NCBI GenBank assembly: GCA_964364265.1 | Contig: CAYILA010000005.1 | Span: forward strand, 6,418-70,417 | Length of the DNA stretch: 64,000 nucleotides | Reading direction: 5' to 3' | DNA from: an uncultured Candidatus Saccharibacteria bacterium | GTDB lineage: Bacteria; Patescibacteriota; UBA1384; XYA2-FULL-43-10; 1-14-0-10-43-13 | Shown here: positions 3,479 through 64,000 of the stretch, one piece after another | Layout of the letters: the number at the start of each line of letters is the position of its first letter | Position numbering within the stretch: position 1 is the stretch's first letter | Program-made: the position numbers and the translations under genes | The notes under the pieces: model-generated | What the model saw: only the letters and a program-made list of their open reading frames with translations | What the model was told of the DNA's origin: nothing | Databases searched by the model: none

Positions 3479-4501
3479 ATGGCCAAATCTCAAAAAAGGC
3501 AAAAAAAAATCAAATCCGATCAGTCAATATCGATCATCACCGTAACATATAATGCCAAGAATTTTATCAAAGATTATGTAAAATCAATTTTTTCCGGTGT
3601 CGCAAAACCAACCGAAGTATTGATATATGATAGCGGATCAACAGATGGTACGGTTGAACGGATTAAGAAGTATCAAAAATTGCATCCGGAAATACATTTA
3701 TTTGAAGGGGACGGTATTGGTTTTGCGGCAGGCAATAATTTTCTGGCGAAGAAAGCGACCGGTCATTTTTTGTTCATCTTGAATCCCGATACAAAAATCG
3801 ACCGCAATTGTTTATCTAATCTTGTCGCCAATCCTTTTCGCGAGGAAAAAATCTTGATGCCGAAAAGGTATCTTTTTGATGGCACTTTTTTGCATCACGG
3901 GATGGGATTGGATGTTTTTGGCTATCCGGCAGACGGCGAAATATTTTTTGTGGACGGGGCGGCAATCTTTTTAAAGACAAAAACATTTATCAATCTGGGT
4001 ATGTTTGATCCCGATTATTTTATGTTCCAAGAGGATGTTGATTTGTCCTGGAGAGCCCATCTTCGCGGTGTTGAGCTTGTAACAGCCGAAGACGCCTCAC
4101 TTTTTCATTACAGCGGTGGATCAACTCCAAGCGGAGGGATTAAAAAAGAAATAAAAAACTATACTACGAATACTTTCAAAAGGTATCTTGGCGAAAGGAA
4201 TACTTTACAAAACATCATTAAGAATTATTCATTTCCAACTTTGCTGATTATCATTCCGTCTGTTATTCTTTTTAGTTTACTTGAAATTATATTATTTACA
4301 GTTACACTTAACTTTAAATTCGTGGGTTGTTATCTGAAAGCTTATGGTTGGGTTATAATCAATATTAGAAAAATTTTAAAGAAAAGAAGGATTGTTCAGG
4401 CCAAAAGAAAGGTCAATGACTTTATGATACTGAAGAAGATGTATATCGGTAGTTCAAAAGTACAGTATTTCAAAAAATATGGCATTCCCAAGATAAGATG
4501 A
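3479..4501 (+). CDS. glycosyltransferase family 2
   Basis: ISIITVTYNAKNFIKDYVKSI ... GNNFLAKKATGHFLFILNPDTKID is a GT2 (rhamnosyltransferase-like) signature. The C-terminus is hydrophobic. Confidence 0.7.
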   Translation: MAKSQKRQKKIKSDQSISIITVTYNAKNFIKDYVKSIFSGVAKPTEVLIYDSGSTDGTVERIKKYQKLHPEIHLFEGDGIGFAAGNNFLAKKATGHFLFILNPDTKIDRNCLSNLVANPFREEKILMPKRYLFDGTFLHHGMGLDVFGYPADGEIFFVDGAAIFLKTKTFINLGMFDPDYFMFQEDVDLSWRAHLRGVELVTAEDASLFHYSGGSTPSGGIKKEIKNYTTNTFKRYLGERNTLQNIIKNYSFPTLLIIIPSVILFSLLEIILFTVTLNFKFVGCYLKAYGWVIINIRKILKKRRIVQAKRKVNDFMILKKMYIGSSKVQYFKKYGIPKIR

Positions 4502-22080: not shown

Positions 22081-23021
22081 CAAAACGAAAAACGATCTCT
22101 GTCCTAACGCCTTGCTATAATGAGGCGGAAAATGTTGAGAACTTGTATTTGGCGGTCAAAAAAATCTTTCAAGATATCGGCAGGTATGATTATGAGCATA
22201 TTTTTATTGATAATTGTTCAACTGACCGAACAGTCCCAATACTCAAGACACTGGCTTCAAAAGATAAAAATCTAAAAATCATCGTTAATATTCGGGATTT
22301 TGGTCAAGTGAAATCACCGGTTTATGGTTTAATGCAAACCTCGGGCGATGCAGCTATTTATTTGGTATCAGATTTTCAGGATCCGTTAGAATTAATTAAC
22401 CAATTTGTAAAGAAATGGGAAGAGGGTTTTGATATTGTCATCGGCATAAAGAAAAAAAGCGCAGAAAACCCAATATTGTTTCTCTTTCGCCAATTTTACT
22501 ATAATCTTCTTAAAAAATTATCAGAAACGGATCATATTAAGAATTTCACCGGTTTTGGTCTTTATGACCGAAAATTTATTAATATTCTCCGCCGCCTTGA
22601 TGATCCTGTTCCATATTTTCGTGGTTTAGTTGCTGAACTCGGTTTTAACCGTGTAGAGATTGAATACAACCAACCAAAGCGACGCGCTGGGAAAACCCAA
22701 AATAATTTTTATACTCTTTATGATATAGCCATGCTGGGTTTTGTCAATCACACCAAAATACCCTTAAGACTGGCCAGCTTTGTCGGCTTTACTATCGCCA
22801 CCGGCAATTTAATTGCGGCCTTTGTCTATCTCATATTTAAATTGATCTATTGGAATGAATTCGATGTTGGCATGGCACCATTGGTAATCGGAGTATTCTT
22901 CTTCTCGGCGGTCCAGTTATTTTTCATCGGCATAATCGGTGAATACATCGGCGCCATCTACACGCAGGTAAAGCGCCGGCCTCTAGTAATTGAAAAAGAG
23001 AGAATCAATTTTGATAAATAA
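22077..23021 (+). CDS. GT2 polyprenyl-phosphate glycosyltransferase (GtrB/DPM1/ArnC-like) with C-terminal TM helices
   Basis: ISVLTPCYNEAENV ... IFIDNCSTDRT at the N-terminus. Two C-terminal TM helices as in GtrB. The last ~47 aa are identical to the paralog at 23931-24893. Confidence 0.75.
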   Translation: MTKRKTISVLTPCYNEAENVENLYLAVKKIFQDIGRYDYEHIFIDNCSTDRTVPILKTLASKDKNLKIIVNIRDFGQVKSPVYGLMQTSGDAAIYLVSDFQDPLELINQFVKKWEEGFDIVIGIKKKSAENPILFLFRQFYYNLLKKLSETDHIKNFTGFGLYDRKFINILRRLDDPVPYFRGLVAELGFNRVEIEYNQPKRRAGKTQNNFYTLYDIAMLGFVNHTKIPLRLASFVGFTIATGNLIAAFVYLIFKLIYWNEFDVGMAPLVIGVFFFSAVQLFFIGIIGEYIGAIYTQVKRRPLVIEKERINFDK

Positions 23022-23031
23022 TCGATTGAAA
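22881..23031 (+). repeat. ~150-bp direct repeat (copy 1) spanning the 3' end of the GtrB-like GT2 and the start of the downstream gene
   Basis: ~95% identical to 24753-24904. The last ~80 bp (gaatacatcggcgccatctacacgcaggtaaagcgccggcctctagtaattgaaaaagagagaatcaattttgataaata) are identical in both copies. Confidence 0.85.
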
Positions 23032-23958
23032 ATCGCAATTTTAGGTGCGACCGGGCATATTGCTAAAGGGTTGGTTGAGAATTTCATAACAAATACCAAT
23101 CATCAACTTTTCCTCTATTCTCGCTCGATTGATTCATTCAAGAACTATCCGGTAAAACTTCCGCAAAAGCGGGCAACGACCCTGATGAATGATTCGTTCA
23201 AGCAATATCGGTACGACGCAATTGTTAATTGTGTAGGAGTCGGCGATCCACAAAAGGTTAAAGAATCGGGTGGACGAATTTTCTTGATAACCGAGGAATT
23301 TGATCAATTGGTTATGAATTATTTATACGAATATCCGAAGTGCAAATATATCAACTTCAGCAGCGGTGCTGTTTATGGCAAGGAACTAAATGGTATTGTT
23401 TCCCTGGAATCAGAGTTTAAATTGGCGGTAAATAATATTAGCGACAAAGATTATTATGCCATCGCCAAATTAAATTCCGAAGCCAAGCATCGAAGTTTTG
23501 GAGAGTTAAATATCATTGATATTAGAGTGTTTTCATATTTTAGCCGCTATATTAATCTTAAGACAAAGTACTTGATAACTGAAATACTGGATAGTATATT
23601 GCATGGAAAAACTTTTGTTACCGATTCAAACGATATCGTTCGAGATTACATCGGGCCGAAAGATCTTTTTAACCTGGTGGATCATTGTCTTAAATATCCG
23701 AATCATTTAAATCTAGCTATTGATGTTTATAGCAAAGAGCCGGTCAAAAAAACGCAGATTCTTAAATTTTTTACTTCAAATTTTCAGTTGAAATGGCGAG
23801 TCGAATCCGGCCTAAAAATCTTAAACGCTACCGGAATGAAATCTCAATATTATTCGACTAACAAAACAGCAGAGATTGTCGGATATAAGCCTGCTTCGAC
23901 ATCGTTGGAAATACTGGGCGGCGAAGCAAAATGTATTTTAAAAAAAAGGAAACAATGA
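22990..23958 (+). CDS. NAD(P)-binding Rossmann-fold protein (SDR-like epimerase/reductase); real start probably TTG near 23026
   Basis: LKIAILGATGHIAKGLVENF glycine-rich motif. The ORF-track start (TTG at 22990) lies in the repeated segment shared with 24862 and overlaps the upstream gene. Confidence 0.45.
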   Translation: MKKRESILINNRLKIAILGATGHIAKGLVENFITNTNHQLFLYSRSIDSFKNYPVKLPQKRATTLMNDSFKQYRYDAIVNCVGVGDPQKVKESGGRIFLITEEFDQLVMNYLYEYPKCKYINFSSGAVYGKELNGIVSLESEFKLAVNNISDKDYYAIAKLNSEAKHRSFGELNIIDIRVFSYFSRYINLKTKYLITEILDSILHGKTFVTDSNDIVRDYIGPKDLFNLVDHCLKYPNHLNLAIDVYSKEPVKKTQILKFFTSNFQLKWRVESGLKILNATGMKSQYYSTNKTAEIVGYKPASTSLEILGGEAKCILKKRKQ

Positions 23959-24893
23959 AAACCTTAATCTCAATAGTTACCCCCTGTTATAATGAAGAGG
24001 AAAATATTCAGGAACTGCGAAAACAGGTTTTGGAAGTGGTCTCAAAAATTCAGGGTTATGAATTCGAGCATATTTTTATTGATAACGCTTCTACCGACCG
24101 AACCCAGCAGATACTCCGACAGATGGCCAAAGAGGATAACAGTGTCAAAGTCATCTTAAATCTGAAAAATTTTGGCCACATTCGCTCGCCTTACTACGCT
24201 CTTCTACAAGCTAATGGATCAGCGGTTATCCAAATCGTTTCCGATCTTCAGGATCCTCCGAAAATGATCAAGGACTTTGTACGAGAATGGGAAGCCGGTC
24301 ATCAGATAGTTATTGGGGTTAAGAAAAAGAGTGAAGAAAACCGATTATTGTTTGCGATTCGATGTTTATATTATCGTTTGCTTAAAAAGATGTCGGAGAC
24401 GGAACAGATAGAGAACTTTACCGGTTTTGGTTTGTATGATCGTTCATTTTTGGATATTATTCGTCAAATCACTGAACCCTACCCTTATCTTCGGGGGTTA
24501 GTTGCAGAATACGGTGTCAACCGGTTAGAAATTGAGTATGTCCAACCGCGCCGAAAAAAGGGCAAAACAAATAATAATTTTTATACTCTTTATGATATGG
24601 CGATGACCGGCTTTGTTAACCACTCCAAGGTTCCCTTGAGATTGGCAAGTTTTATCGGTTTTAGTGTTGCAATTTTAAGCCTGATGGTGGCTATAATTTA
24701 TTTTATTATTAAATTAATTCATTGGGATGAATTTAATGCCGGTATTGCTCCTCTGGTAATCGGAGTATTCTTCTTCTCGGCGGTTCAATTATTCTTTATC
24801 GGGATAATCGGGGAATACATCGGCGCCATCTACACGCAGGTAAAGCGCCGGCCTCTAGTAATTGAAAAAGAGAGAATCAATTTTGATAAATAA
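23931..24893 (+). CDS. GT2 polyprenyl-phosphate glycosyltransferase (GtrB/DPM1-like), paralog of 22077-23021
   Basis: LISIVTPCYNEEENIQEL ... IFIDNASTDRT. Roughly 60% identical to the upstream paralog, with the C-terminal 47 aa 100% identical (inference). The real start is probably MKTLIS at ~23955. Confidence 0.75.
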   Translation: MYFKKKETMKTLISIVTPCYNEEENIQELRKQVLEVVSKIQGYEFEHIFIDNASTDRTQQILRQMAKEDNSVKVILNLKNFGHIRSPYYALLQANGSAVIQIVSDLQDPPKMIKDFVREWEAGHQIVIGVKKKSEENRLLFAIRCLYYRLLKKMSETEQIENFTGFGLYDRSFLDIIRQITEPYPYLRGLVAEYGVNRLEIEYVQPRRKKGKTNNNFYTLYDMAMTGFVNHSKVPLRLASFIGFSVAILSLMVAIIYFIIKLIHWDEFNAGIAPLVIGVFFFSAVQLFFIGIIGEYIGAIYTQVKRRPLVIEKERINFDK

Positions 24894-24904
24894 GCGATTG
24901 AAAA
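24753..24904 (+). repeat. ~150-bp direct repeat (copy 2)
   Basis: See copy 1 at 22881-23031. Confidence 0.85.
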
Positions 24905-27123
24905 AATACCGGGTTGTTTTACTCTATCTTTTTCTTTCACTCATTTTTTTGGCTCCGATATTAACCGGAAATGGTCTACCGTTTCGTTATGACTGGGTCT
25001 GGCCGATCTTTAATACGGGGCAGTTTTGGGATGGTCTAACGACAGGCAATTCACTTGGTGTTTTTTCAGCTCTATCAAAAAACGGACCGGCGGTTCTAGG
25101 AGTATTGGGAATGACTTATCTTCCGCCCTTATATTTGTTTAAAATATTTATCTTTTTGATCCATTTTGTAGCCGGATATGGATTTTACCGGTTTATCAGA
25201 GAGAGGGTACAGTCAGAAACGGTAGCAATCGTTTCCGGTTTGGCCTACGCTTTGACGCCCTATATATTCATAAGAACTATCATCGGTTTTGTCTGGTCGA
25301 TGCTGGCTTATGCGCTACTGCCGGTTTTTTTATTAAAATATTTCGAAGCTAAGAAAAAAATCTTTGACTATCTGATTATTGGTTTTCTTTTCTCTTTGAT
25401 ATTCGGCCAAATCCAAGCCGGTCTTTTAACCTTTTTAATCATTTCGATTTATTCGGTTTTGTCTCTATTTACTACGGATTCTAAAAAAGCGGTCAAAAAT
25501 TATATTTTTACCCTTATCTCCCTCTTTGTTTTCGCCTTGCCATGGCTATCGGTTATTTTTTTTAAGAAACAAACTTTAGCCACTGTTTCCGGCGGAGCTG
25601 CCACAACCCTGGATTTTATTTCCTCCCTCCCTCACAGTTACCGCAACTTCATAATGCTTTCAGATCATCATATAACCTCGGATTTTTTCAATTCTTTGGG
25701 GCGGGATAAACTATTTCTAGCCGGTTGGCTGGTCGTCTGGTTCGTGTCTGCCTGCGTCGTATTTAATAAAAAAAATAGAACATTGGCGCTGACATTTTTG
25801 GTTTCCTCATTATTGGTTTTGCCTTTCATTAAAGGTCCGCTTGGAGTTTTCGGACATTTTTATATCTGGTTTTATGATCGAGTACCTCAAATTGCTGTTT
25901 TTAGGGAAACCTATCATTTTGAATTTTTATTCGCCATCTCTATTTCTGTTTTGTTTGCTCTGGGACTCGATTGGCTTTGGCAAAAGATTGATAATCAAAA
26001 AAAAATAACCCTGCCTCGCCGACAGGCGGGCAAGATACAAGGTTCAGACGGACTTATTAGCTTACTGCTTACCGGCTTAAAAGCTATTTCAGCCGGCAGT
26101 ATTATCTTCATCATCTCGCCTTATCTGACATTTGATTATGCCGGTTATCTAAAACTTCAAAAAATTCCCGCTGAATATAATCAGCTAAATATTTTTCTAA
26201 AAGAAAATAAAAATTACTGTCAGAAGATTTACTACCCTCCCGGACTGGGTTTTCTTTATTTTAAAAACGATAATTTAAAAGGCGCCTCAAATGCCGACAC
26301 CTTTGCTTCCTCAGTCGGTATTCCGCATCTGACCGATGGCGCTTCCGTTTTGAGTGTGCCAAGCGAAGAGATGTTTTATCGAAACGAGATCGTATCCCAG
26401 TTTTATGAAAGGTCTGATGACGGCCGGTTTGTAGATTTGCTGAATGAGGGTGGCGTTGACTGCCTAATATTGCGCTTGAATATGGAAACGAGATATGATC
26501 AGGCCTCAAACCTTTGGCGAGAGAAAGATCCAGTCATCCTAAAGAAATGGAACAATATCGACCTCCTTTCTTTAGCCAAAACGAAAAAGGGGATGAAACT
26601 GGAGAAGCAATTCGGAGAAAATATTTTCATTTATAAGATCGACTCAAACAAAGTTCAGGATCCGGGACTCGGGACTCGGGACTCGGGACTGAATAATCTG
26701 GAACCGGTGGCCTGGAACCAGAGACCTAGGACGTATCTGCCGCTAACCGATTGGGCGAATAATTTTGCTTACTATAGGGATGGTTGGAGCCGAGGCCGAT
26801 ATGACTTTTGGCGCAAACACCTCTTCACACAACTGCGACAGGATTTTATCTATACCGATAAGCCTGACTCAACTTTGACTGGAAAAATTTCGGAAAACGG
26901 ATCCTATGAGCTCTGGGTGCGGTATCTAGACGGCGGAGGAGCAGGCAGATTTAAGATTATTGTTAATAATATGGAATTTGTGGTACAAAAGGAGGCAGGC
27001 GCGGAGAGATTCGCTTGGAAGATATTAAATGAAGTTAAAATTAATGGAAACGCTTCCTTTGAAATTACCAATCTTAGCGGCGAGAATGCCATATCGGATC
27101 TTGTTTTGATAAAAAACGATTGA
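24862..27123 (+). CDS. large polytopic membrane protein with C-terminal soluble domain (putative GtrC-like/GT-C glycosyltransferase partner of the GtrB-like GT2)
   Basis: 753 aa. The N-terminal ~420 aa are multi-TM and the C-terminal ~330 aa are soluble. It contains a 4x heptanucleotide tract (26663-26690). The ORF-track TTG start is inside the duplicated segment; the real start is probably ~24898. Confidence 0.4.
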   Translation: MKKRESILINKRLKKYRVVLLYLFLSLIFLAPILTGNGLPFRYDWVWPIFNTGQFWDGLTTGNSLGVFSALSKNGPAVLGVLGMTYLPPLYLFKIFIFLIHFVAGYGFYRFIRERVQSETVAIVSGLAYALTPYIFIRTIIGFVWSMLAYALLPVFLLKYFEAKKKIFDYLIIGFLFSLIFGQIQAGLLTFLIISIYSVLSLFTTDSKKAVKNYIFTLISLFVFALPWLSVIFFKKQTLATVSGGAATTLDFISSLPHSYRNFIMLSDHHITSDFFNSLGRDKLFLAGWLVVWFVSACVVFNKKNRTLALTFLVSSLLVLPFIKGPLGVFGHFYIWFYDRVPQIAVFRETYHFEFLFAISISVLFALGLDWLWQKIDNQKKITLPRRQAGKIQGSDGLISLLLTGLKAISAGSIIFIISPYLTFDYAGYLKLQKIPAEYNQLNIFLKENKNYCQKIYYPPGLGFLYFKNDNLKGASNADTFASSVGIPHLTDGASVLSVPSEEMFYRNEIVSQFYERSDDGRFVDLLNEGGVDCLILRLNMETRYDQASNLWREKDPVILKKWNNIDLLSLAKTKKGMKLEKQFGENIFIYKIDSNKVQDPGLGTRDSGLNNLEPVAWNQRPRTYLPLTDWANNFAYYRDGWSRGRYDFWRKHLFTQLRQDFIYTDKPDSTLTGKISENGSYELWVRYLDGGGAGRFKIIVNNMEFVVQKEAGAERFAWKILNEVKINGNASFEITNLSGENAISDLVLIKND
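26663..26690 (+). repeat. heptanucleotide tandem repeat (cgggact)x4 inside the CDS at 24862-27123
   Basis: cgggactcgggactcgggactcgggact encodes GLGTRDSGL. Unit length is not a multiple of 3. Confidence 0.8.
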
Positions 27124-42667: not shown

Positions 42668-42745
42668 TTGTCATCCTAACGCTTTTATTCTTGTCATCCC
42701 GACCAACGCGGAGGGATCTTTAAAAAGATTCCTCGATTCGTTTCA
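42668..42745. repeat. palindromic repeat family 1 copy (gtcatcccga...gagggatc core), partial
   Basis: gtcatcctaacgc...gtcatcccgaccaacgcggagggatctttaaaaagattcctcgattcg shares the arms of the other family-1 copies. Confidence 0.6.
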
Positions 42746-43287: not shown

Positions 43288-43303
43288 TTTATTCCTCTCC
43301 TAA

Positions 43304-43366
43304 CCGCGGAGTTAGTCAAAACACACGCTGCAGCGTATGTTTTGACACAGTTTTCATGCTCCGCGG
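43304..43366. repeat. long inverted repeat containing perfect 32-bp palindrome gtcaaaacacacgctgcagcgtatgttttgac (copy 1 of 2)
   Basis: The palindrome is centred on CTGCAG and flanked by ccgcggag/ctccgcgg. It shares ~55 bp with the second copy at 47203-47258. Confidence 0.8.
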
Positions 43367-43575: not shown

Positions 43576-43836
43576 ATGCATTACGTATACTTAATAAGAA
43601 GCGAAGCAAACGACCAATTGTATATTGGTTATACAACAAATATTAAACGAAGGATTTTGGAGCATAATCGCGGCGAAAACCAGTCAACGAAACATTATAA
43701 ACCATGGAAATTAATATTCGCCGAAATCTATATTGAAGAGATGGATGCGAAGCGTCGAGAACAATATTTAAAAACTAATCAAGGGAGTAGGTTGTTGAAG
43801 AGAATGCTAAAGGAATATTTCTACAGGCATCCATAA
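43576..43836 (+). CDS. GIY-YIG nuclease domain protein
   Basis: HYVYLIRSEANDQLYIGYTTNIKRRILEHNRG matches the GIY-YIG motif (YVY...YIGxT...R..EH). The start is probably ATG at 43576 rather than the ORF-track 43510. Confidence 0.7.
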   Translation: MHYVYLIRSEANDQLYIGYTTNIKRRILEHNRGENQSTKHYKPWKLIFAEIYIEEMDAKRREQYLKTNQGSRLLKRMLKEYFYRHP

Positions 43837-47128: not shown

Positions 47129-47202
47129 AATGTGCCACAGAGTATATCCCCGTGATGGTTCGCCGCCACGGGGATTTTCGTATCTTGGTGCCCTCTACAA
47201 TT

Positions 47203-47258
47203 CCTAATTGCGGAGTTGGTCAAAACATACGCTGCAGCGTATATTTTGACACAGTTAA
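47203..47258. repeat. palindromic repeat gtcaaaacatacgctgcagcgtatattttgac with shared left flank (copy 2 of 2)
   Basis: cctaattgcggagttggtcaaaacatacgctgcagcgtatattttgacacagtt is ~90% identical to 43296-43350. Confidence 0.8.
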
Positions 47259-47368: not shown

Positions 47369-48952
47369 ATGAACATTCACGAACTACAAGAAAAAATATC
47401 AGAGAAAGAGTTTGATTTTGTGCGCGGGATATTAAACATAACTCCGAATGTGCGGGTATTTCTGGTCGGGGGAATCGTCCGCGACGCCTTACTCGGCCGG
47501 GAGAATCCGGATTATGATTTTGTGGTTGAAAACATTGAAATCGATAAGTTGGTCGAGATATTAAAGGGTTACGGCAGGGTAACTGATGTTTCCGGACGCA
47601 ATTTCGGGGTGATTAAATTCACTCCGGAGGGGGAAAAACGGCAGTTTGACCTCTCCATACCACGAACGGAGAGGTATCAGAGCGGAAAGCGAAGGTCTGA
47701 CGCAGAGGTCAAGACCGATAAAGTGACTCTGAAAGACGATTTCATGCGCCGTGACTTTACGGTAAATGCAATCGCAATTCCATTGAATAAAGTCATTTCT
47801 ACAAAATCAGATCCATTGTCATCCCGAGCGACCGGAAGGGAGTCGAGGGATCTTTTAGAAGATTCCTCCGCTTCGGTCGGAATGACAGGAAACGACGGGT
47901 TGATGGAAATCTACGACCTCTTCGGTGGGGTTGAAGACATTCAAAACAAGATTATCCGGGCGGTTGGTGATCCGGAGGAAAGATTCGAAGAAGACCCGAC
48001 AAGGATCCTACGGGCCGTCAGATTTGCCTGCCGGCTTGATTTTGAAATTGAGCCAGAAACATTTTCGGCAATGAAAAAATTAAAAGGGGAGATATTAAAA
48101 ACATTTGAAAAAGAGGACGGAACCAAACTTCAAAGAGTGTCGAATGAGATGATTGGAATTGAAATCGCCAAGGCAATCGAAGGAAATCCGATTAAATTTT
48201 TAAGTCTTTTCGACGATTTGGGCTTACTTCCGGAGTTATTGCCGGAAATCGAAAAGTTAAAGGGTGTAGAACAGCCGATCGAGTGGCACAGTGAGGGTGA
48301 CGCCTTTGTCCATACTAAATTGGTGGTTTCAAATATTCCGGCCGATTCGTCGCTCGAACTAAAATTAGCGGCATTATTCCACGACATTGGAAAATATGAC
48401 ACGAGGGAACCCAAAACAGTAAATCAGCTAATCAGTAAATCAGCTAATCAGCAAACAATTCACTTTTATGGGCATGACAAGGTTTCGGTTGAAAAAGCGA
48501 GGCTAATACTAAATAGATACAGGTTCAAAAAAGATCTTATCGAAAATGTCTCTTGGTTGATCGAAAACCATATGAGGATTATGTCATTCCCGCAGATGAG
48601 AATATTTAAACAAAAAGATATGGCGCGCCATCCGCAATTTTTAAATCTGATCAAATTATCGGAGGCTGATGATGCGGCGACTATTCCGACCACGGCCAAA
48701 AAGTCGGTTTTTCTGCCGACGGTACGGGAAATCGTAAAACAGCTTGAGGAAGAAGAGAAAGCCGGCAAACCACGCCAGATATTGAACGGTAATGAAATCA
48801 TAGAACTATTAAAACGGGAAAAGCCGGGTTTTGATATTAAAAGTGAGGGAAAACTGATTGGAGAACTTAAGAGAAAAGTGAACGAAGAGTATGACGAAGG
48901 TCTTATTAAAAGCAAAAACGAAGCCCTTGATTGGCTTCGTTCCAATGTCTGA
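47369..48952 (+). CDS. cca: CCA-adding tRNA nucleotidyltransferase with HD domain, carrying an in-frame repeat-element insertion
   Basis: LVGGIVRDALLG, RRDFTVNAIAI, GDPEERFEEDPTRILRAVRF (head domain) and LAALFHDIGK (HD). Residues SSRATGRESRDLLEDSSASVGMT are encoded by a copy of the family-1 palindromic repeat (47818-47887). Confidence 0.8.
   Translation: MNIHELQEKISEKEFDFVRGILNITPNVRVFLVGGIVRDALLGRENPDYDFVVENIEIDKLVEILKGYGRVTDVSGRNFGVIKFTPEGEKRQFDLSIPRTERYQSGKRRSDAEVKTDKVTLKDDFMRRDFTVNAIAIPLNKVISTKSDPLSSRATGRESRDLLEDSSASVGMTGNDGLMEIYDLFGGVEDIQNKIIRAVGDPEERFEEDPTRILRAVRFACRLDFEIEPETFSAMKKLKGEILKTFEKEDGTKLQRVSNEMIGIEIAKAIEGNPIKFLSLFDDLGLLPELLPEIEKLKGVEQPIEWHSEGDAFVHTKLVVSNIPADSSLELKLAALFHDIGKYDTREPKTVNQLISKSANQQTIHFYGHDKVSVEKARLILNRYRFKKDLIENVSWLIENHMRIMSFPQMRIFKQKDMARHPQFLNLIKLSEADDAATIPTTAKKSVFLPTVREIVKQLEEEEKAGKPRQILNGNEIIELLKREKPGFDIKSEGKLIGELKRKVNEEYDEGLIKSKNEALDWLRSNV
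47818..47887. repeat. palindromic repeat family 1 copy, inserted in-frame in cca
   Basis: gtcatcccgagcgaccggaagggagtcgagggatcttttagaagattcctccgcttcggtcggaatgac is nearly the reverse complement of the copy at 60776-60876. Confidence 0.75.
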
Positions 48953-50899: not shown

Positions 50900-51010
50900 T
50901 AAATCCGAAATCCTAATTTCTAAATTCTAAACAAATTCTAATTTTTAAAATTTAGATATTTAGATTTCGACATTGTTTCGGATTTAGGATTTAGAGTTTT
51001 TTAATTTGTG
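50900..51010. repeat. palindromic repeat family 2 copy (cctaaatcctaaa / ttgtttcggatttaggattt TIR-like arms)
   Basis: aaatccgaaatcctaatttctaaattctaaacaa...ttgtttcggatttaggatttagag. Intergenic between the VanW-like gene and the P-type ATPase. Confidence 0.7.
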
Positions 51011-53724: not shown

Positions 53725-55449
53725 CTATGACTTATTGCCGGCCGCTTTAATGAAGGCCATAAAGAGAGGATGCGGGCGGAGAGGACGGGATTGGAATTCG
53801 GGATGGAATTGTGTTCCGACAAAGAAGGGGTGATTCTTAACTTCGACAATTTCGACCAGATCCCTTTCCGGATTGACACCGGCAACCACCAACCCGCATT
53901 TTTCCAACTGTTTTCTGTACTTATTATTCAATTCGAAACGGTGTCGGTGACGCTCTACCACGACTCCGTCGTGGAAATCCGAATATCTAATATCTAAATT
54001 CGAAACATATTTTGAATTTTCTTTTTTAGAATTTTCGATTTGTTTAGGATTTAGGATTTCTGATTTAGGATTTCTGTAAGCTTCGTATGAAATAGTTCCT
54101 TCTTTTAGCTTACAGCTATATCCGCCCAAACGCATCGAACCGCCGTAATCTTTCTCTTCCAGTTTTTTCTTCTGATCCGGCATTATATGGATGACCGGAT
54201 ACGGAGTTTTCGGATCGATCTCCTCGGTATGCGCCCCTTTCAGCCCGCAGACATTGCGGGCGAATTCAATGGTAGCGATTTGCATACCATAGCAGAGACC
54301 GAAGTAAGGAATCTTCTGTTCGCGGCAATACTTGGCGGTCAAAACTTTGCCTTCAATGCCGCGGGAACCGAATCCGCCCGGCACGATGATACCGTTATAC
54401 TGGTCAAGCTCTTTTAATTTCTTGGGATCTTTTTCAAATTCTTCGGCGTTGATCCAAGTCATTTTTGGACGAAGTTCCTGTGTCCAGGCGGCGTGTTTGA
54501 CCGACTCGATTATCGAAATGTAGGAATCTGCCAGGACATAATCGCCGGTGCCGAAATATTTGCCGACAAACCCGATTTTAACTTCTTTTCGGCCGTTCTT
54601 GGCGTGCCGGGCGAATTCTTCCCATTTCGAAAGATCGGATTTTTTTGGTCGCAATCCAAATAGTTTTAAAATTTTGTTGCCGAAATCCTCTTTTTCAAAA
54701 TTAATCGGAACATCATAAATTGAATCGACATCGGGGGCGGAGATGGCATTTTCCGGTTTGATTGAACAAAAAGTGGCCAGCTTTTCGCGGCGTTTGGCGT
54801 CAATCGGTTTTTCGGCGCGGCAGAGGATAAAATCGGCCTGTATGCCGCAGGAGTTTAATTCCCGCGAGGCATATTGTGTCGGTTTGGTTTTCATTTCGCC
54901 GACCGTGCCGGGAATTGGGAGATAAGAGACCAAGATGAAAATGACATCGGCCGGTCTTTTCATTTTCATCATTCTGGCCGCTTCTAAAAAGAGCAGATTT
55001 TCATATTCACCGACTGTTCCGCCGATCTCGACGATGGTGAAATCGGCCTTGGCCGCCTTGCCGGCTTCTAAAATTCTTCGTTCAATTTCCTCCGGGATGT
55101 GGGGCACGACTTGGACACATTTTCCACCGTAGTCCAAGTTTCTTTCTTTATGTATGACGGTCTCATAAATCCGGCCGGTGGTCATGTAATTAATTTTTTT
55201 GATTTCTTCGTCTAAAAATCTTTCGTAGTTGCCGCAGTCCTGATCGGTTTCGTCGCCGTCAATGGTTACAAAAACCTCGCCGTGTTCAGTCGGGTTCATA
55301 GTGCCGGCGTCGACATTTATATAGGGATCGGCCTTAATGGCGGTAACGCCATAGCCCTTGCTTTTTAAAATAGTGCCGATCGAAGCGGCAGCTATTCCTT
55401 TTCCAACCGATGACATTACTCCGCCAACCACAAAGATAAACTTGGACAT
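53725..55449 (-). CDS. pyrG: CTP synthase, carrying an in-frame repeat-element insertion
   Basis: N-terminal KFIFVVGGVMSSVGKGI, the GATase domain with GLCYGMQ and ERHRHRFE. The extra segment RNPKSEILNPKQIENSKKENSKYVSNLDIRYSDF before ERHRHR is encoded by a family-2 repeat copy (~53978-54078). Confidence 0.9.
   Translation of the reverse strand: MSKFIFVVGGVMSSVGKGIAAASIGTILKSKGYGVTAIKADPYINVDAGTMNPTEHGEVFVTIDGDETDQDCGNYERFLDEEIKKINYMTTGRIYETVIHKERNLDYGGKCVQVVPHIPEEIERRILEAGKAAKADFTIVEIGGTVGEYENLLFLEAARMMKMKRPADVIFILVSYLPIPGTVGEMKTKPTQYASRELNSCGIQADFILCRAEKPIDAKRREKLATFCSIKPENAISAPDVDSIYDVPINFEKEDFGNKILKLFGLRPKKSDLSKWEEFARHAKNGRKEVKIGFVGKYFGTGDYVLADSYISIIESVKHAAWTQELRPKMTWINAEEFEKDPKKLKELDQYNGIIVPGGFGSRGIEGKVLTAKYCREQKIPYFGLCYGMQIATIEFARNVCGLKGAHTEEIDPKTPYPVIHIMPDQKKKLEEKDYGGSMRLGGYSCKLKEGTISYEAYRNPKSEILNPKQIENSKKENSKYVSNLDIRYSDFHDGVVVERHRHRFELNNKYRKQLEKCGLVVAGVNPERDLVEIVEVKNHPFFVGTQFHPEFQSRPLRPHPLFMAFIKAAGNKS
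53978..54078. repeat. palindromic repeat family 2 copy inserted in-frame in pyrG
   Basis: gaaatccgaatatctaatatctaaattcgaaaca...tcgatttgtttaggatttaggatttctgatttaggatttctg. Translated on the minus strand as part of PyrG. Confidence 0.7.
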
Positions 55450-55497
55450 ATTTTTCCTCCGGAAAATGACTTTACATAAATAAAAACAGACTCACTT

Positions 55498-55565
55498 GTC
55501 ATCCCGAGCGAGCGTAGCGAGTCGAGGGATCTCTCCATTCTCGAAATCTCACCAGTCGAGACAAC
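55498..55565. repeat. palindromic repeat family 1 copy (half element)
   Basis: gtcatcccgagcgagcgtagcgagtcgagggatctctcc..., intergenic between pyrG and the NTase gene. Confidence 0.6.
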
Positions 55566-56988: not shown

Positions 56989-57085
56989 TGTCATCCCGAC
57001 TGAGCGGAGCGAACGGAGGGATCCCTCGGCTCGTTGTACTCGCTCGGGATGACATTCGCCACTTTCACCTTTATGGACTTTCGAC
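56989..57085. repeat. palindromic repeat family 1 copy (full hairpin) between groES and groEL
   Basis: gtcatcccgactgagcggagcgaacggagggatccctcggctcgttgtactcgctcgggatgac plus the cattcgccactttcac...ctttcgact tail shared with the 60776 copy. Confidence 0.75.
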
Positions 57086-60775: not shown

Positions 60776-60876
60776 TGTCATTCCGACCGACCGAAGGGAG
60801 CGGAGGAATCTTTCAAAAGATCCCTCAACTCGCTATGCTCGCTCGGGATGACATTCGTCACTTTCGACTTTCGACT
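60776..60876. repeat. palindromic repeat family 1 copy (full element) between efp and rpsR
   Basis: gtcattccgaccgaccgaagggagcggaggaatctttcaaaagatccctcaactcgctatgctcgctcgggatgacattcgtcactttcgactttcgact. Confidence 0.75.
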
Positions 60877-60881
60877 CTTCG

Positions 60882-61121
60882 TTATTTGATTACGAATGGC
60901 AAAAGAGCCAAGTGTCTAGCCTGTTTGATTGCCCGCGCCAGTTCGCGCTGGTGACGGCGGCAGGTTCCGCTGCGCTGGGCGCTGTCGATTTGGTTCCAGC
61001 GGTTTAGGTAACGGGTGAGCATGGTGACATTTTTGTAATCAAGCTCGTTTACCTTTGCCTTGCAAAACAAGCATTTCTTAATCCTTGGCGTAAAACTTTC
61101 TTCTCTTTTTTGATAATACAT
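60882..61121 (-). CDS. rpsR: 30S ribosomal protein S18
   Basis: CLFCKAKVNELDYKNVTMLTRYLNRWNQIDSAQRSGTCRRHQRELARAIKQARHLALLPF. Confidence 0.85.
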   Translation of the reverse strand: MYYQKREESFTPRIKKCLFCKAKVNELDYKNVTMLTRYLNRWNQIDSAQRSGTCRRHQRELARAIKQARHLALLPFVIK

Positions 61122-61134
61122 ATGGCTCCTTCGG

Positions 61135-61300
61135 AGTAAATTCTAAATTCTAATATCGAAATCCTAAACAATTTCTAAATCCAAATTATCAAAATTGAAA
61201 TATTTTAGTCATTCGATTTTTTGATTTCTAATTTGTTTCGGATTTAGGATTTAGCATTTCGGATTTCCTTTCTAAACTTTCGGTTTAGAAAGGTATTTCG
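61135..61300. repeat. palindromic repeat family 2 copy between rpsR and ssb
   Basis: ttctaaattctaatatcgaaatcctaaacaatttctaaatcc...atttgtttcggatttaggatttagcatttcggatttcc. Confidence 0.7.
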
Positions 61301-63350: not shown

Positions 63351-64000
63351 TTATACATTAAACCTGAAAATAACAACATCACCATCTTGAAAGATGTATG
63401 TTTTACCTTCTGTTCTTACCATCCCGTGTGCTTTGGCGCCGGACCAGCCGCCCTGGGCGTAGAAATCCTGCCAGGGGATGACCTCGGCGGCGATGAAACC
63501 TTTTTGGAAATCAGTATGGATCGCTCCGGCCGCTTCCGGCGCGGTGGCGCCTTTTTTCACCGTCCAAGCCCGCGTTTCCTTCTCACCGGAGGTGAAGAAA
63601 GTAATCAATCCAAGTGTTTCGTAGGCTTTTTTAATCAATGAATCTAAACCGGTTTCAGATAAACCTAGGGTCTCAAGGTATTCCTTCTTCTCTTCATCTG
63701 TTAATTCGTTTAGGTCGGATTCAATCTTCGCGCTGATGGGAATGATGTGCCGTTTGATGTCATCCTGAGCGTTAGCGAAGGATCTGGGCGCCAGCCGCAT
63801 TATCGCTTCGCTGGATTCTTCACTTCGTTCAGAATGACTAACAGAAGCCAGTTGCTCTTCCGAAACGTTAGCGACATAGATGACCGGTTTCATGGTCAGA
63901 AGCGCCAAGCCCTTGAGTAATTCTTCCTCCCGTTCGTCCAGTTTCGCCTCGCGGGCGTTCTTGCCCTCATATAAGACATCTTTGATCTTCTGTAATCCCG
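63351..64000 (-). CDS. ychF: ribosome-binding ATPase YchF (C-terminal part; 5' end outside window)
   Basis: C-terminal TGS-domain sequence (TRAWTVKKGATAPEAAGAIHTDFQKGFIAAEVI...GDVVIFRFNV). The minus-strand frame stays open to the window edge (VIYVANVSEEQL coiled-coil region). Confidence 0.8.
   Translation of the reverse strand, partial: GLQKIKDVLYEGKNAREAKLDEREEELLKGLALLTMKPVIYVANVSEEQLASVSHSERSEESSEAIMRLAPRSFANAQDDIKRHIIPISAKIESDLNELTDEEKKEYLETLGLSETGLDSLIKKAYETLGLITFFTSGEKETRAWTVKKGATAPEAAGAIHTDFQKGFIAAEVIPWQDFYAQGGWSGAKAHGMVRTEGKTYIFQDGDVVIFRFNV

Follow-up and report, generated by a model that had tools for sequence, protein, structure and literature searches.

The CCA-adding enzyme gene (cca) in a 64,000-nt stretch of contig CAYILA010000005.1 (hereafter the window, meaning the whole stretch that was analysed) carries a 69-nt palindromic repeat that is a true in-frame insertion in an intact, essential gene. 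This segment is probably a head-to-head dimer of TGTC-tagged units that resemble repetitive extragenic palindromes (REPs), and a variant of the CGTC-tagged REP/Ssn-related motif (SRM) repeats; it would carry no gene of its own and would rely on an Ssn-like nuclease acting in trans. Repeat finding, BLAST, and alignment revealed ten copies in the window of an arm of 25-35 nt that begins with TGTCATyCy, making up four complete palindromes and two single or decayed copies. The cca gene and the copies are as follows.

47369-48952, + strand: cca, encoding a class II CCA-adding enzyme of 527 amino acids that includes an HD domain (open reading frame (ORF) intact, Pfam PolyA_pol and HD)
47817-47887, + strand: cca copy, a head-to-head dimer of two tagged hairpin units, 69 nt from GTCAT to ATGAC, equal to 23 codons
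47818-47852: A arm of the cca copy, GTCATCCCGAGCGACCGGAAGGGAGTCGAGGGATC
47861-47886: B arm of the cca copy, GTCATTCCGACCGAAGCGGAGGAATC in the reverse-complement sense
56989-57054: copy between groES and groEL, a complete head-to-head dimer of 64 nt from GTCAT to ATGAC, flanking genes co-directional, -38.5 kcal/mol, z -5.5
60776-60853: copy between rpsR and efp, a complete head-to-head dimer of 76 nt, arm order B then A, -39.4 kcal/mol, z -6.2
60882-61121, - strand: rpsR; efp is also on the - strand
63758-63840, - strand: ychF copy, a complete dimer whose arms are of a sister type, 27 codons (81 nt), read in-frame as SVSHSERSEESSEAIMRLAPRSFANAQDD
55497-55532, + strand: copy between pyrG and a nucleotidyltransferase gene, a single arm (singleton unit), flanking genes divergent
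42692-42745, + strand: decayed copy after a glycosyltransferase family 4 (GT4) gene, left arm intact (42693-42718), right arm recognisable by its inner half GATTCCTCG alone

The 69-nt cca element, GTCATCCCGAGCG...CGGTCGGAATGAC, was located exactly at 47818-47886. Its 13-mer head GTCATCCCGAGCG, at up to two mismatches, has 11 occurrences in the window where 1.03 would be expected; no shuffle out of 100 gave as many. The ten arms are confined to 42.6-63.9 kb, within the last 22 kb, and the first 42 kb, a dense polysaccharide-synthesis cluster, contained none. The tags point outward in all four complete copies, two of which are in-frame in genes (69 and 81 nt) and two intergenic (64 and 76 nt), and the predicted folds of the full copies range from -33 to -39 kcal/mol (z = -3.4 to -6.2 relative to shuffled sequence). 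The cca and efp copies are A/B heterodimers with the arm orders A-B and B-A, whereas the stems of the ychF copy are ATCCT/AGGAT and ATTCT/AGAAT. Inspection of the flanks for direct repeats found no target-site duplication at any of the six copies, and the flanks in the window shared no consistent outer element.

The groES-groEL and rpsR-efp copies, and no other copy, have about 18 nt in common beyond the palindrome (ATTCGyCACTTTCrmCTTT, at 57054-57072 and 60853-60871), and one of the two may derive from the other together with its flank. No T-run follows any copy, and the reading of the copies as intrinsic terminators was ruled out because none was called by terminator prediction. Rfam gave no family at the gathering score in the whole window, with chance-level matches to eukaryotic miRNA and snoRNA families (E up to 1) in 55.4-61.0 kb, and a tRNA scan of the window found none.

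A sequence-only reading of this stretch had already reported a repeated palindromic element with reverse-complementary copies at 47818 and 60776 and a cca copy translated in-frame. The observation is real: the repeat was recovered by repeat finding, BLAST, alignment, and the 13-mer excess over shuffles, the two copies are reverse complements (84% over 44 nt), and the cca copy is read as the peptide SSRATGRESRDLLEDSSASVGMT. Among the five copies listed in that reading, those at 47818, 56989, and 60776 are complete, whereas 55498 is the single arm, and 42668 is a degenerate extra head (TGTCATCCTAACGC, at 42669) beside the decayed copy. The list, which covered 42.6-60.9 kb, was incomplete, as it missed the divergent sixth full copy at 63758-63840 in ychF. 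A supposed fragment at ~16636 amounts to about 15 nt (CTTCGCCGGGATGAC) and has no significance by itself.

The organization of the arm became clear from its occurrence in other bacteria. A genome scan with one genome per species and both termini fixed returned at least 120 loci that span Planctomycetota, Gemmatimonadota, Acidobacteriota, Verrucomicrobiota, Alpha- and Gammaproteobacteria, Bacteroidota, Omnitrophota, Patescibacteria, and others. Among the matches listed, the 25-nt arm GTCATyCCGAGCGnAGCGAGGrATC was almost invariant around a variable centre, the Y of ATyCC and the R of GGrAT agreed within 222 of 224 arms, and 17 of the 18 heterodimers that were parsed had each arm internally concordant even though the two arms differed (Fisher p 8e-55). 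In metagenome loci, 270 of 274 arms had the two covarying positions in agreement, with outer heads left free by the search pattern included. Stem triplets were perfectly complementary in 157 of 164 arms and AT...AT closing pairs were present in all. The tag was TGTC in 142, CGTC in 18, and AGTC in 4 of these 164, GTC preceding the stem in every case; a C directly followed the stem in 162, and the tail was CTN in 136 and CCN in 24, so that the conserved part of the tail is its first C alone. The arm consensus TGTC-AT-NNN-GAGCGnAGCGA-N'N'N'-AT-C is retained with nearly every base unchanged in at least 10 phyla.

The window arms follow the same plan, with a TGTC tag in nine of ten (AGTC belongs to the right arm of the ychF copy) and four stem variants that are all concordant within the arm. 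A fifth variant, ATTGC/GCAAT, occurs at locus L248 with the same interior, GAGCGCAGCGA, and at L121 two copies of one type differ by a compensatory stem change (ATTCCCGC/GCGGGAAT versus ATTCCTGC/GCAGGAAT). In the predicted fold, window arms form five continuous Watson-Crick pairs, followed by G.A/A.G mismatches with two to three further pairs and an apical loop of 3-4 nt. The GAGCG-N-AGCGA interior is expanded in the 34-nt arms, where it reaches 20 nt, and AGCG-repeat interiors range from 11 to 20 nt. As deduced from these alignments, the unit thus comprises an unpaired TGTC tag, a stem AT-NNN/N'N'N'-AT, a purine-rich AGCG-repeat interior (GAGCG-N-AGCGA), and a following C, and two inverted units with tags outward and a spacer of 4-30 nt make a palindrome of 64-83 bp. 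Covariation is found inside the arms and not between them; therefore, the element is a head-to-head dimer of REP-like units and not a classical MITE (miniature inverted-repeat transposable element). TGTC-tagged units are also dense on the contigs of two other cca homologues, L121 (190, 1032-1116, 2012-2070, and 3997-4087) and L122 (706-788 and 1473-1603).

The host gene has stayed intact. The cca product retains every residue that is invariant across 118 homologues, its AlphaFold2 model has a mean predicted local distance difference test score (pLDDT) of 91.4, and in Foldseek the model matched class II CCA-adding enzymes of solved structure, at E about 1e-15. Assemblies of two separate Hainich groundwater samples each yielded the identical protein. 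In the alignment, the segment between RRDFTVNAIAI and YDLFGG is about 37 residues longer than in the nearest homologue P0002, which is 55% identical and lies on a syntenic contig with H+-pyrophosphatase (H+-PPase) and DUF3006 genes upstream; the TGTCAT head is absent throughout 8.8 kb of that contig. Relative to PDB 6ibp, residues 139-178 take the place of two residues. Excising the 69 nt from G47818 to C47886 gives ...CCA TTA GGA AAC... with the frame kept. Orthologues lack the segment, and its DNA is the same repeat as that of the intergenic copies, which bears out the insertion that the sequence-only reading had proposed for alignment; its core interpretation is accordingly supported in outline. 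As to the surface loop that it suggested looking for, residues 141-180 form a low-confidence loop in the AlphaFold2 model (pLDDT 53-67, mostly coil between two strands), and their placement at the tip of a β-hairpin just after the RRDFTxNA motif of the head domain is a probable one, drawn from the model. The cca loop was probably permissive already, because some relatives (P0003-P0005) carry unrelated loops of 12-20 residues at this position; counted together with P0012, the unrelated inserts there measure 8-20 residues. The nearest named homologues of both cca and ychF are from Patescibacteria (Uhrbacteria, Berkelbacteria, and "Patescibacteria group"), which gives the assignment to the CPR good, though indirect, support. 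A protein search with a 41-residue query around the cca module gave no candidate.

Insertion into coding sequence is recurrent. A metagenome scan for the A/B heterodimer yielded 125 dimers at 119 loci, and 31 of them (about 25%) were inside ORFs that extended at least 40 amino acids on both sides; at the mostly low-GC loci, the share was 24 of 101 dimers. By the author's rough estimate (about 0.055 stops per codon, about 110 codons, and six frames), chance would account for ~1-2 of the 125. Compact genomes of this kind are roughly 90% coding. In a comparison that is likewise rough, the 25% genic share is far below the expectation for random, unselected insertion. Seventeen of 20 tested host ORFs encoded recognisable enzymes. 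These included three isoleucyl/valyl-type tRNA synthetases, two CysRS, GatB, and QueA, as well as UvrD, TatD, a class A penicillin-binding protein (PBP1), a Mur ligase, a Wzy-type protein, two GT4 glycosyltransferases, a prepilin peptidase, an IscS-like aminotransferase, and a radical SAM protein. Furthermore, in-frame dimers occur at a second site in other cca homologues: P0012 has a textbook CGTC-1 unit, TGTC-ATTCCCGC-GAAG-GCGGGAAT-CCA, and P0009 also carries one.

The same YchF loop has been entered repeatedly. In most Patescibacteria orthologues, the loop from NVSEEQL to IPISAK has 12-20 residues, and the 81-nt ychF insert of the window is absent from most of them. At least 11 YchF homologues (P0122, P0135, P0235, P0151, P0169, P0227, P0222, P0238, P0131, P0153, and P0236) carry repeat-derived peptides at the loop after NVSEEQL. 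These peptides come from at least three arm families, represented by CHSERSEES...RSFANAQDD, by VIPAKAGI, SFLRKQES, and SREGGN, and by VIASAAKQS...GLAMT; two of the inserts (loci L247 and L248) were confirmed in DNA. These results suggest that the loop after NVSEEQL either attracts insertions as a hot spot or tolerates them unusually well. For the window's own copies, the predicted tryptic peptides of the inserts are ESRDLLEDSSASVGMTGNDGLMEIYDLFGGVEDIQNK (cca) and SEESSEAIMR (ychF).

A second line of evidence concerns the genes that lie between such arms. Full-length relatives of the palindrome contain a single-domain GIY-YIG gene of ~90-105 amino acids between two units. GIY-YIG ORFs were found between inverted arms of the window's A/B type at L217, L156, and L174/L200, between other tagged arms at L195, L228, and L131, and in an SRM-ssn-SRM-like layout of sister arm types at L249-L256. 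In an independent set of eight loci from complete plasmids or chromids, chosen by protein similarity alone, CGTC/TGTC units occurred within ~150 nt of the GIY-YIG gene in 8/8, and one unit abutted the gene on each side in four (Rhizobium, Sinorhizobium, Sphingobium, and Novosphingobium). On the Azospirillum lipoferum 4B plasmid AZO_p3 (L250, 255118-256178), the GIY-YIG gene has a complete CGTC-1 head-to-head dimer on each side and is located between sufB and sufC, apparently inserted, along with the dimers, within an operon. This association of GIY-YIG genes with repeats is already published and is not new: Ssn proteins are single-domain GIY-YIG nucleases that bind their cognate hairpin (NTS/SRM) as single-stranded DNA only and cleave one strand only, a few nucleotides upstream of it, and ssn genes are typically flanked by the motif in an SRM-ssn-SRM layout that the authors termed IS-like (Chenal et al., 2025, Nat Commun 16:2388, PMC11893778). 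In-frame insertions and Patescibacteria are not mentioned in the main text of that paper.

The window contains one gene of this kind, located between a hypothetical gene and the H+-pyrophosphatase gene.

43576-43836, + strand: small single-domain GIY-YIG gene (86 amino acids, PF01541, E 6.7e-18)

Its product is 42% identical over 71 amino acids to the GIY-YIG homologues that are flanked by arms, and NCBIfam offers no informative family for such small proteins. By this sequence similarity, the protein is a candidate for the partner enzyme of the repeats. Another, 55-nt repeat is present at 43298-43352, some 230 nt before the start codon of the GIY-YIG gene, and at 47202-47256, some 120 nt upstream of cca. 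The two copies are 91% identical, and their core is a near-perfect 32-nt palindrome (GTCAAAACAyACGCTGCAGCGTATrTTTTGAC) that is not an SRM-type arm. This repeat may serve as an operator, or it may represent another family of repeats.

Since the full-length relatives carry a nuclease gene between their units, the short palindromes are best regarded as derivatives which lack the gene and need the nuclease in trans. By analogy with SsnA of N. meningitidis, an Ssn-like nuclease would bind the hairpin of each unit in single-stranded DNA and would cleave that strand alone, a few nucleotides 5' of the tag. In a dimer with tags outward, the two cuts would then fall on opposite strands, each just beyond one end of the element. 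Such an arrangement would favour excision or copying without a fixed target duplication, and it would explain the ill-defined boundaries of the element. Mobilisation of the repeats by the GIY-YIG enzyme is itself a conjecture by analogy with these systems, and on this model one dimer may have landed at the β-hairpin tip after RRDFTxNA of the cca head domain, where it kept the frame, introduced no in-frame stop, and would persist as a tolerated, probably disordered surface loop of 23 residues. In-frame copies in permissive loops would survive selection, and most other genic insertions would be lost. The two-arm pattern gave 0 matches in 2.9 million viral contigs, compared with at least 120 loci in bacterial genomes, which provides no support for carriage by phages.

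Several observations weigh against this explanation. The GIY-YIG gene of the window has no flanking arm, and 27 amino acids alone of its product align with a Neisseria SsnA homologue, which leaves its membership of the Ssn clade (cd10448) unproven. The experiments on Ssn demonstrated cleavage and an effect on transformation, not transposition (PMC11893778). The published SRM pattern, HGTCWYN(0-2)YYVSBRHN(0-5)WNVSBRGN(0-2)RNCYNB, matched 0/10 window arms, and the 8-9 bp continuous stem and 4-5 nt loop of CGTC-tagged REPs are not seen in these arms either. With nearest-neighbour energies, lone arms have weak predicted folds of -3 to -5 kcal/mol that do not surpass those of shuffles, and the case for the stem therefore rests on covariation. 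The lengths of the 31 coding metagenome copies, out of 125 copies overall, give residues 2/0/1 modulo 3 in 15/11/5 cases; without a clean rule, the exact boundaries of the inserted unit are undefined. No close relative with an empty site came to light; the nearest relative is 55% identical. Finally, both the neutrality and the translation of the loop are presumed, its peptide being predicted from the ORF.

Other explanations were weighed against the same data. The sequence-only reading had labelled the element a palindromic MITE, which in the classical sense would be an internal-deletion derivative of an insertion sequence with a DDE transposase, its terminal inverted repeats of 25-35 bp (TGT...ACA) serving as transposase sites. 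Termini of the 5'-TG/CA-3' form are common among DDE elements. The ends TGTCAT...ATGACA fit this rule, and conserved ends with a variable centre are what such an element would show; however, stem positions covary within the arm, heterodimers are common, and a single arm exists at 55497. With no target-site duplication at six copies, no transposase annotated at window positions 1-58,950, the part with gene tables, and GIY-YIG nucleases rather than transposases between the arms, the arms behave as independent hairpins, and a classical MITE is very improbable. A REPIN mobilised by a REP-associated tyrosine transposase (RAYT; HUH, Y1, of the IS200/IS605 type) would share the architecture of two inverted REP hairpins and the absence of target duplication, and recognition of single-stranded DNA hairpins by RAYTs is established (PMC3116915 and PMC3479197). 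On the other hand, the tag is TGTC/CGTC and not GTAG, no RAYT was found linked to CGTC repeats (Di Nocera, De Gregorio and Rocco, 2013, PMC3733652), and the gene nested between the arms encodes a GIY-YIG nuclease. In addition, tblastn with IS200 TnpA, a weak test, found no match in 1.74 Mb of repeat-bearing loci. This origin is consequently very unlikely.

The copies could also be functional sites selected by the host for mRNA stabilisation or processing, or for control of recombination or incoming DNA (a role proposed for NTS in Neisseria), with the cca copy as a by-product or a regulatory element. At three intergenic sites (groES-groEL, rpsR-efp, and after the GT4 gene), the neighbouring genes are co-directional or convergent and the copy stands between or after them, as do transcribed REPs (PMC3733652), the arm sequence is conserved in many phyla, and SsnA with NTS affects transformation in Neisseria (PMC11893778). 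However, SsnA does not bind RNA (PMC11893778), the copies lack both a T-run and an Rfam match, and a -33 kcal/mol hairpin plus 23 extra residues in an essential enzyme is simpler to understand as a tolerated insertion. Host selection, which leaves the origin of copies at new sites unexplained and is compatible with the insertion of REP-like dimers rather than an alternative to it, has little probability as the explanation of the cca segment. Less credible still is a reading of the segment as a normal loop peculiar to the lineage, or as an artefact of assembly, whose likeness to the intergenic repeats is coincidental. The position is indeed variable, and four homologues carry unrelated inserts there, but both arms hold the full 26-35 nt repeat with concordant stems, the 13-mer matches are far above chance, and independent assembly of the protein from two samples speaks against an artefact. 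This last alternative is refuted because of the nucleotide-level identity to the other copies.

The interpretation as a dimer of TGTC-tagged REP-like units places the element close to two described systems. CGTC-tagged REPs have CGTC, TGTC, or CCTC tags, occur in several phyla mostly as head-to-head dimers with frequent heterodimers, and "apparently lack a dedicated transposase"; their in-frame intragenic copies encode 20-30 residues (PMC3733652). The window elements share with them the unpaired CGTC/TGTC tag, the stem starting A-T, T-A, the tags-outward dimers with variable spacers, the heterodimers, the in-frame copies, and overlapping host classes (QueA, PBP1, UvrD, and aminoacyl-tRNA synthetases), and relatives of the window genes carry textbook CGTC-1 units (peptides VIPAKAGI, SFLRKQES, and CHSREGGN). 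They differ in that a canonical CGTC-1 unit from these relatives folds as 8 bp with a 4-nt loop, the tail consensus is CCA in CGTC-tagged REPs and C-T-N in the window type, and Patescibacteria were outside the 2013 survey (PMC3733652). With the Ssn/SRM system, the window repeats share the oriented hairpin with an HGTC tag, the C after the stem, and, for arms of their type at L217, L156, and L174/L200, the position on both sides of a GIY-YIG gene; the cross-phylum consensus arm also fails the published SRM pattern, whereas NTS matches it. Moreover, 2% of NTS copies in N. meningitidis are inside genes (PMC11893778), compared with about 25% of the copies sampled here.

Two further systems are similar in organization. 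Rickettsia palindromic elements (RPEs), including RPE-1 (Ogata et al., 2000, Science 290:347, as cited in PMC10969869), are likewise palindromes inserted in-frame in unrelated essential genes of a small-genome bacterium, with a peptide module compatible with function. The likeness to RPEs drawn in the sequence-only reading goes beyond analogy: CGTC-1 and CGTC-4 of R. conorii were equated with RPE-6 and RPE-4, and CGTC-1 of Neisseria with dRS3 (PMC3733652, BMC Genomics 14:522), and these elements share the tag, the AT-start stem, and the head-to-head layout. RPE-1 types, on the other hand, are ~100-150 bp and Rickettsia-specific, whereas the window elements are 64-83 bp, and similarity to the window arms is limited to the tagged head of RPE-4 and RPE-6, linked by Di Nocera's equation alone. 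In-frame insertion, which that reading called the hallmark of RPEs, is not unique to Rickettsia, several phyla having been tabulated in 2013 (PMC3733652); its statement that the phenomenon is not generally described for bacteria of the candidate phyla radiation (CPR) is consistent with the limited collection of literature searched. In the REPIN-RAYT system, a doublet of inverted REP hairpins is the replicating unit and the partner enzyme is single-copy (Bertels and Rainey, 2011, PMC3116915). Both systems thus have an inverted doublet as a non-autonomous replicating unit, no target duplication, and a partner enzyme (here the candidate nuclease) that works on single-stranded DNA hairpins. REPINs differ by the GTAG tag and the HUH tyrosine transposase, in contrast to the TGTC tag and GIY-YIG nuclease here, and their families are lineage-specific, whereas the window-type arm is near-identical across many phyla. 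Literature string searches with the arm sequence returned no relevant paper.

Two other kinds of repetition occur in the window. AT-rich intergenic repeats of GGATTTAGGATTT-like units in both orientations are present at 50901-51000, 53973-54074, and 61200-61268 and are unrelated to the TGTC arms. The polysaccharide cluster contains a tandem duplication of a glycosyltransferase-2 and epimerase gene pair (22185-23034 and 24057-24906, spacing 1872 nt, 77-92% identity).

Four aspects of these results appear to be new: an arm family missed by the published SRM search pattern, the presence of such repeats in Patescibacteria, the in-frame location of about 25% of sampled copies inside housekeeping genes, and the repeated insertions into the same YchF loop. 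Because the SRM pattern misses this arm family, surveys of Ssn and SRM, and searches for nuclease specificities for biotechnology, may undercount. For annotation, inserts of 20-30 residues should not be taken for frameshifts, inteins, or lineage-specific functional loops, and the recurrent YchF and cca sites constitute a natural experiment on the tolerance of proteins to insertions. Selfish DNA within genes that encode proteins, which is best known from Rickettsia, also acts in the reduced genomes of Patescibacteria, where core enzymes are among those altered, for example YchF, GatB, aminoacyl-tRNA synthetases, and the CCA-adding enzyme, and such in-gene insertions are now probably tied to the Ssn single-stranded DNA nuclease system. 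It is quite possible, and tentatively proposed, that Ssn-type repeats missed by the SRM pattern are a major recurrent source of in-frame insertions in essential translation, replication, and cell-wall enzymes of Patescibacteria and low-GC uncultured bacteria. If so, the same loops being hit independently by different families would reflect either a target preference of the single-stranded DNA nuclease machinery or a small number of permissive sites, and the repeats would be a general contributor to lineage-specific insertions in CPR proteins.

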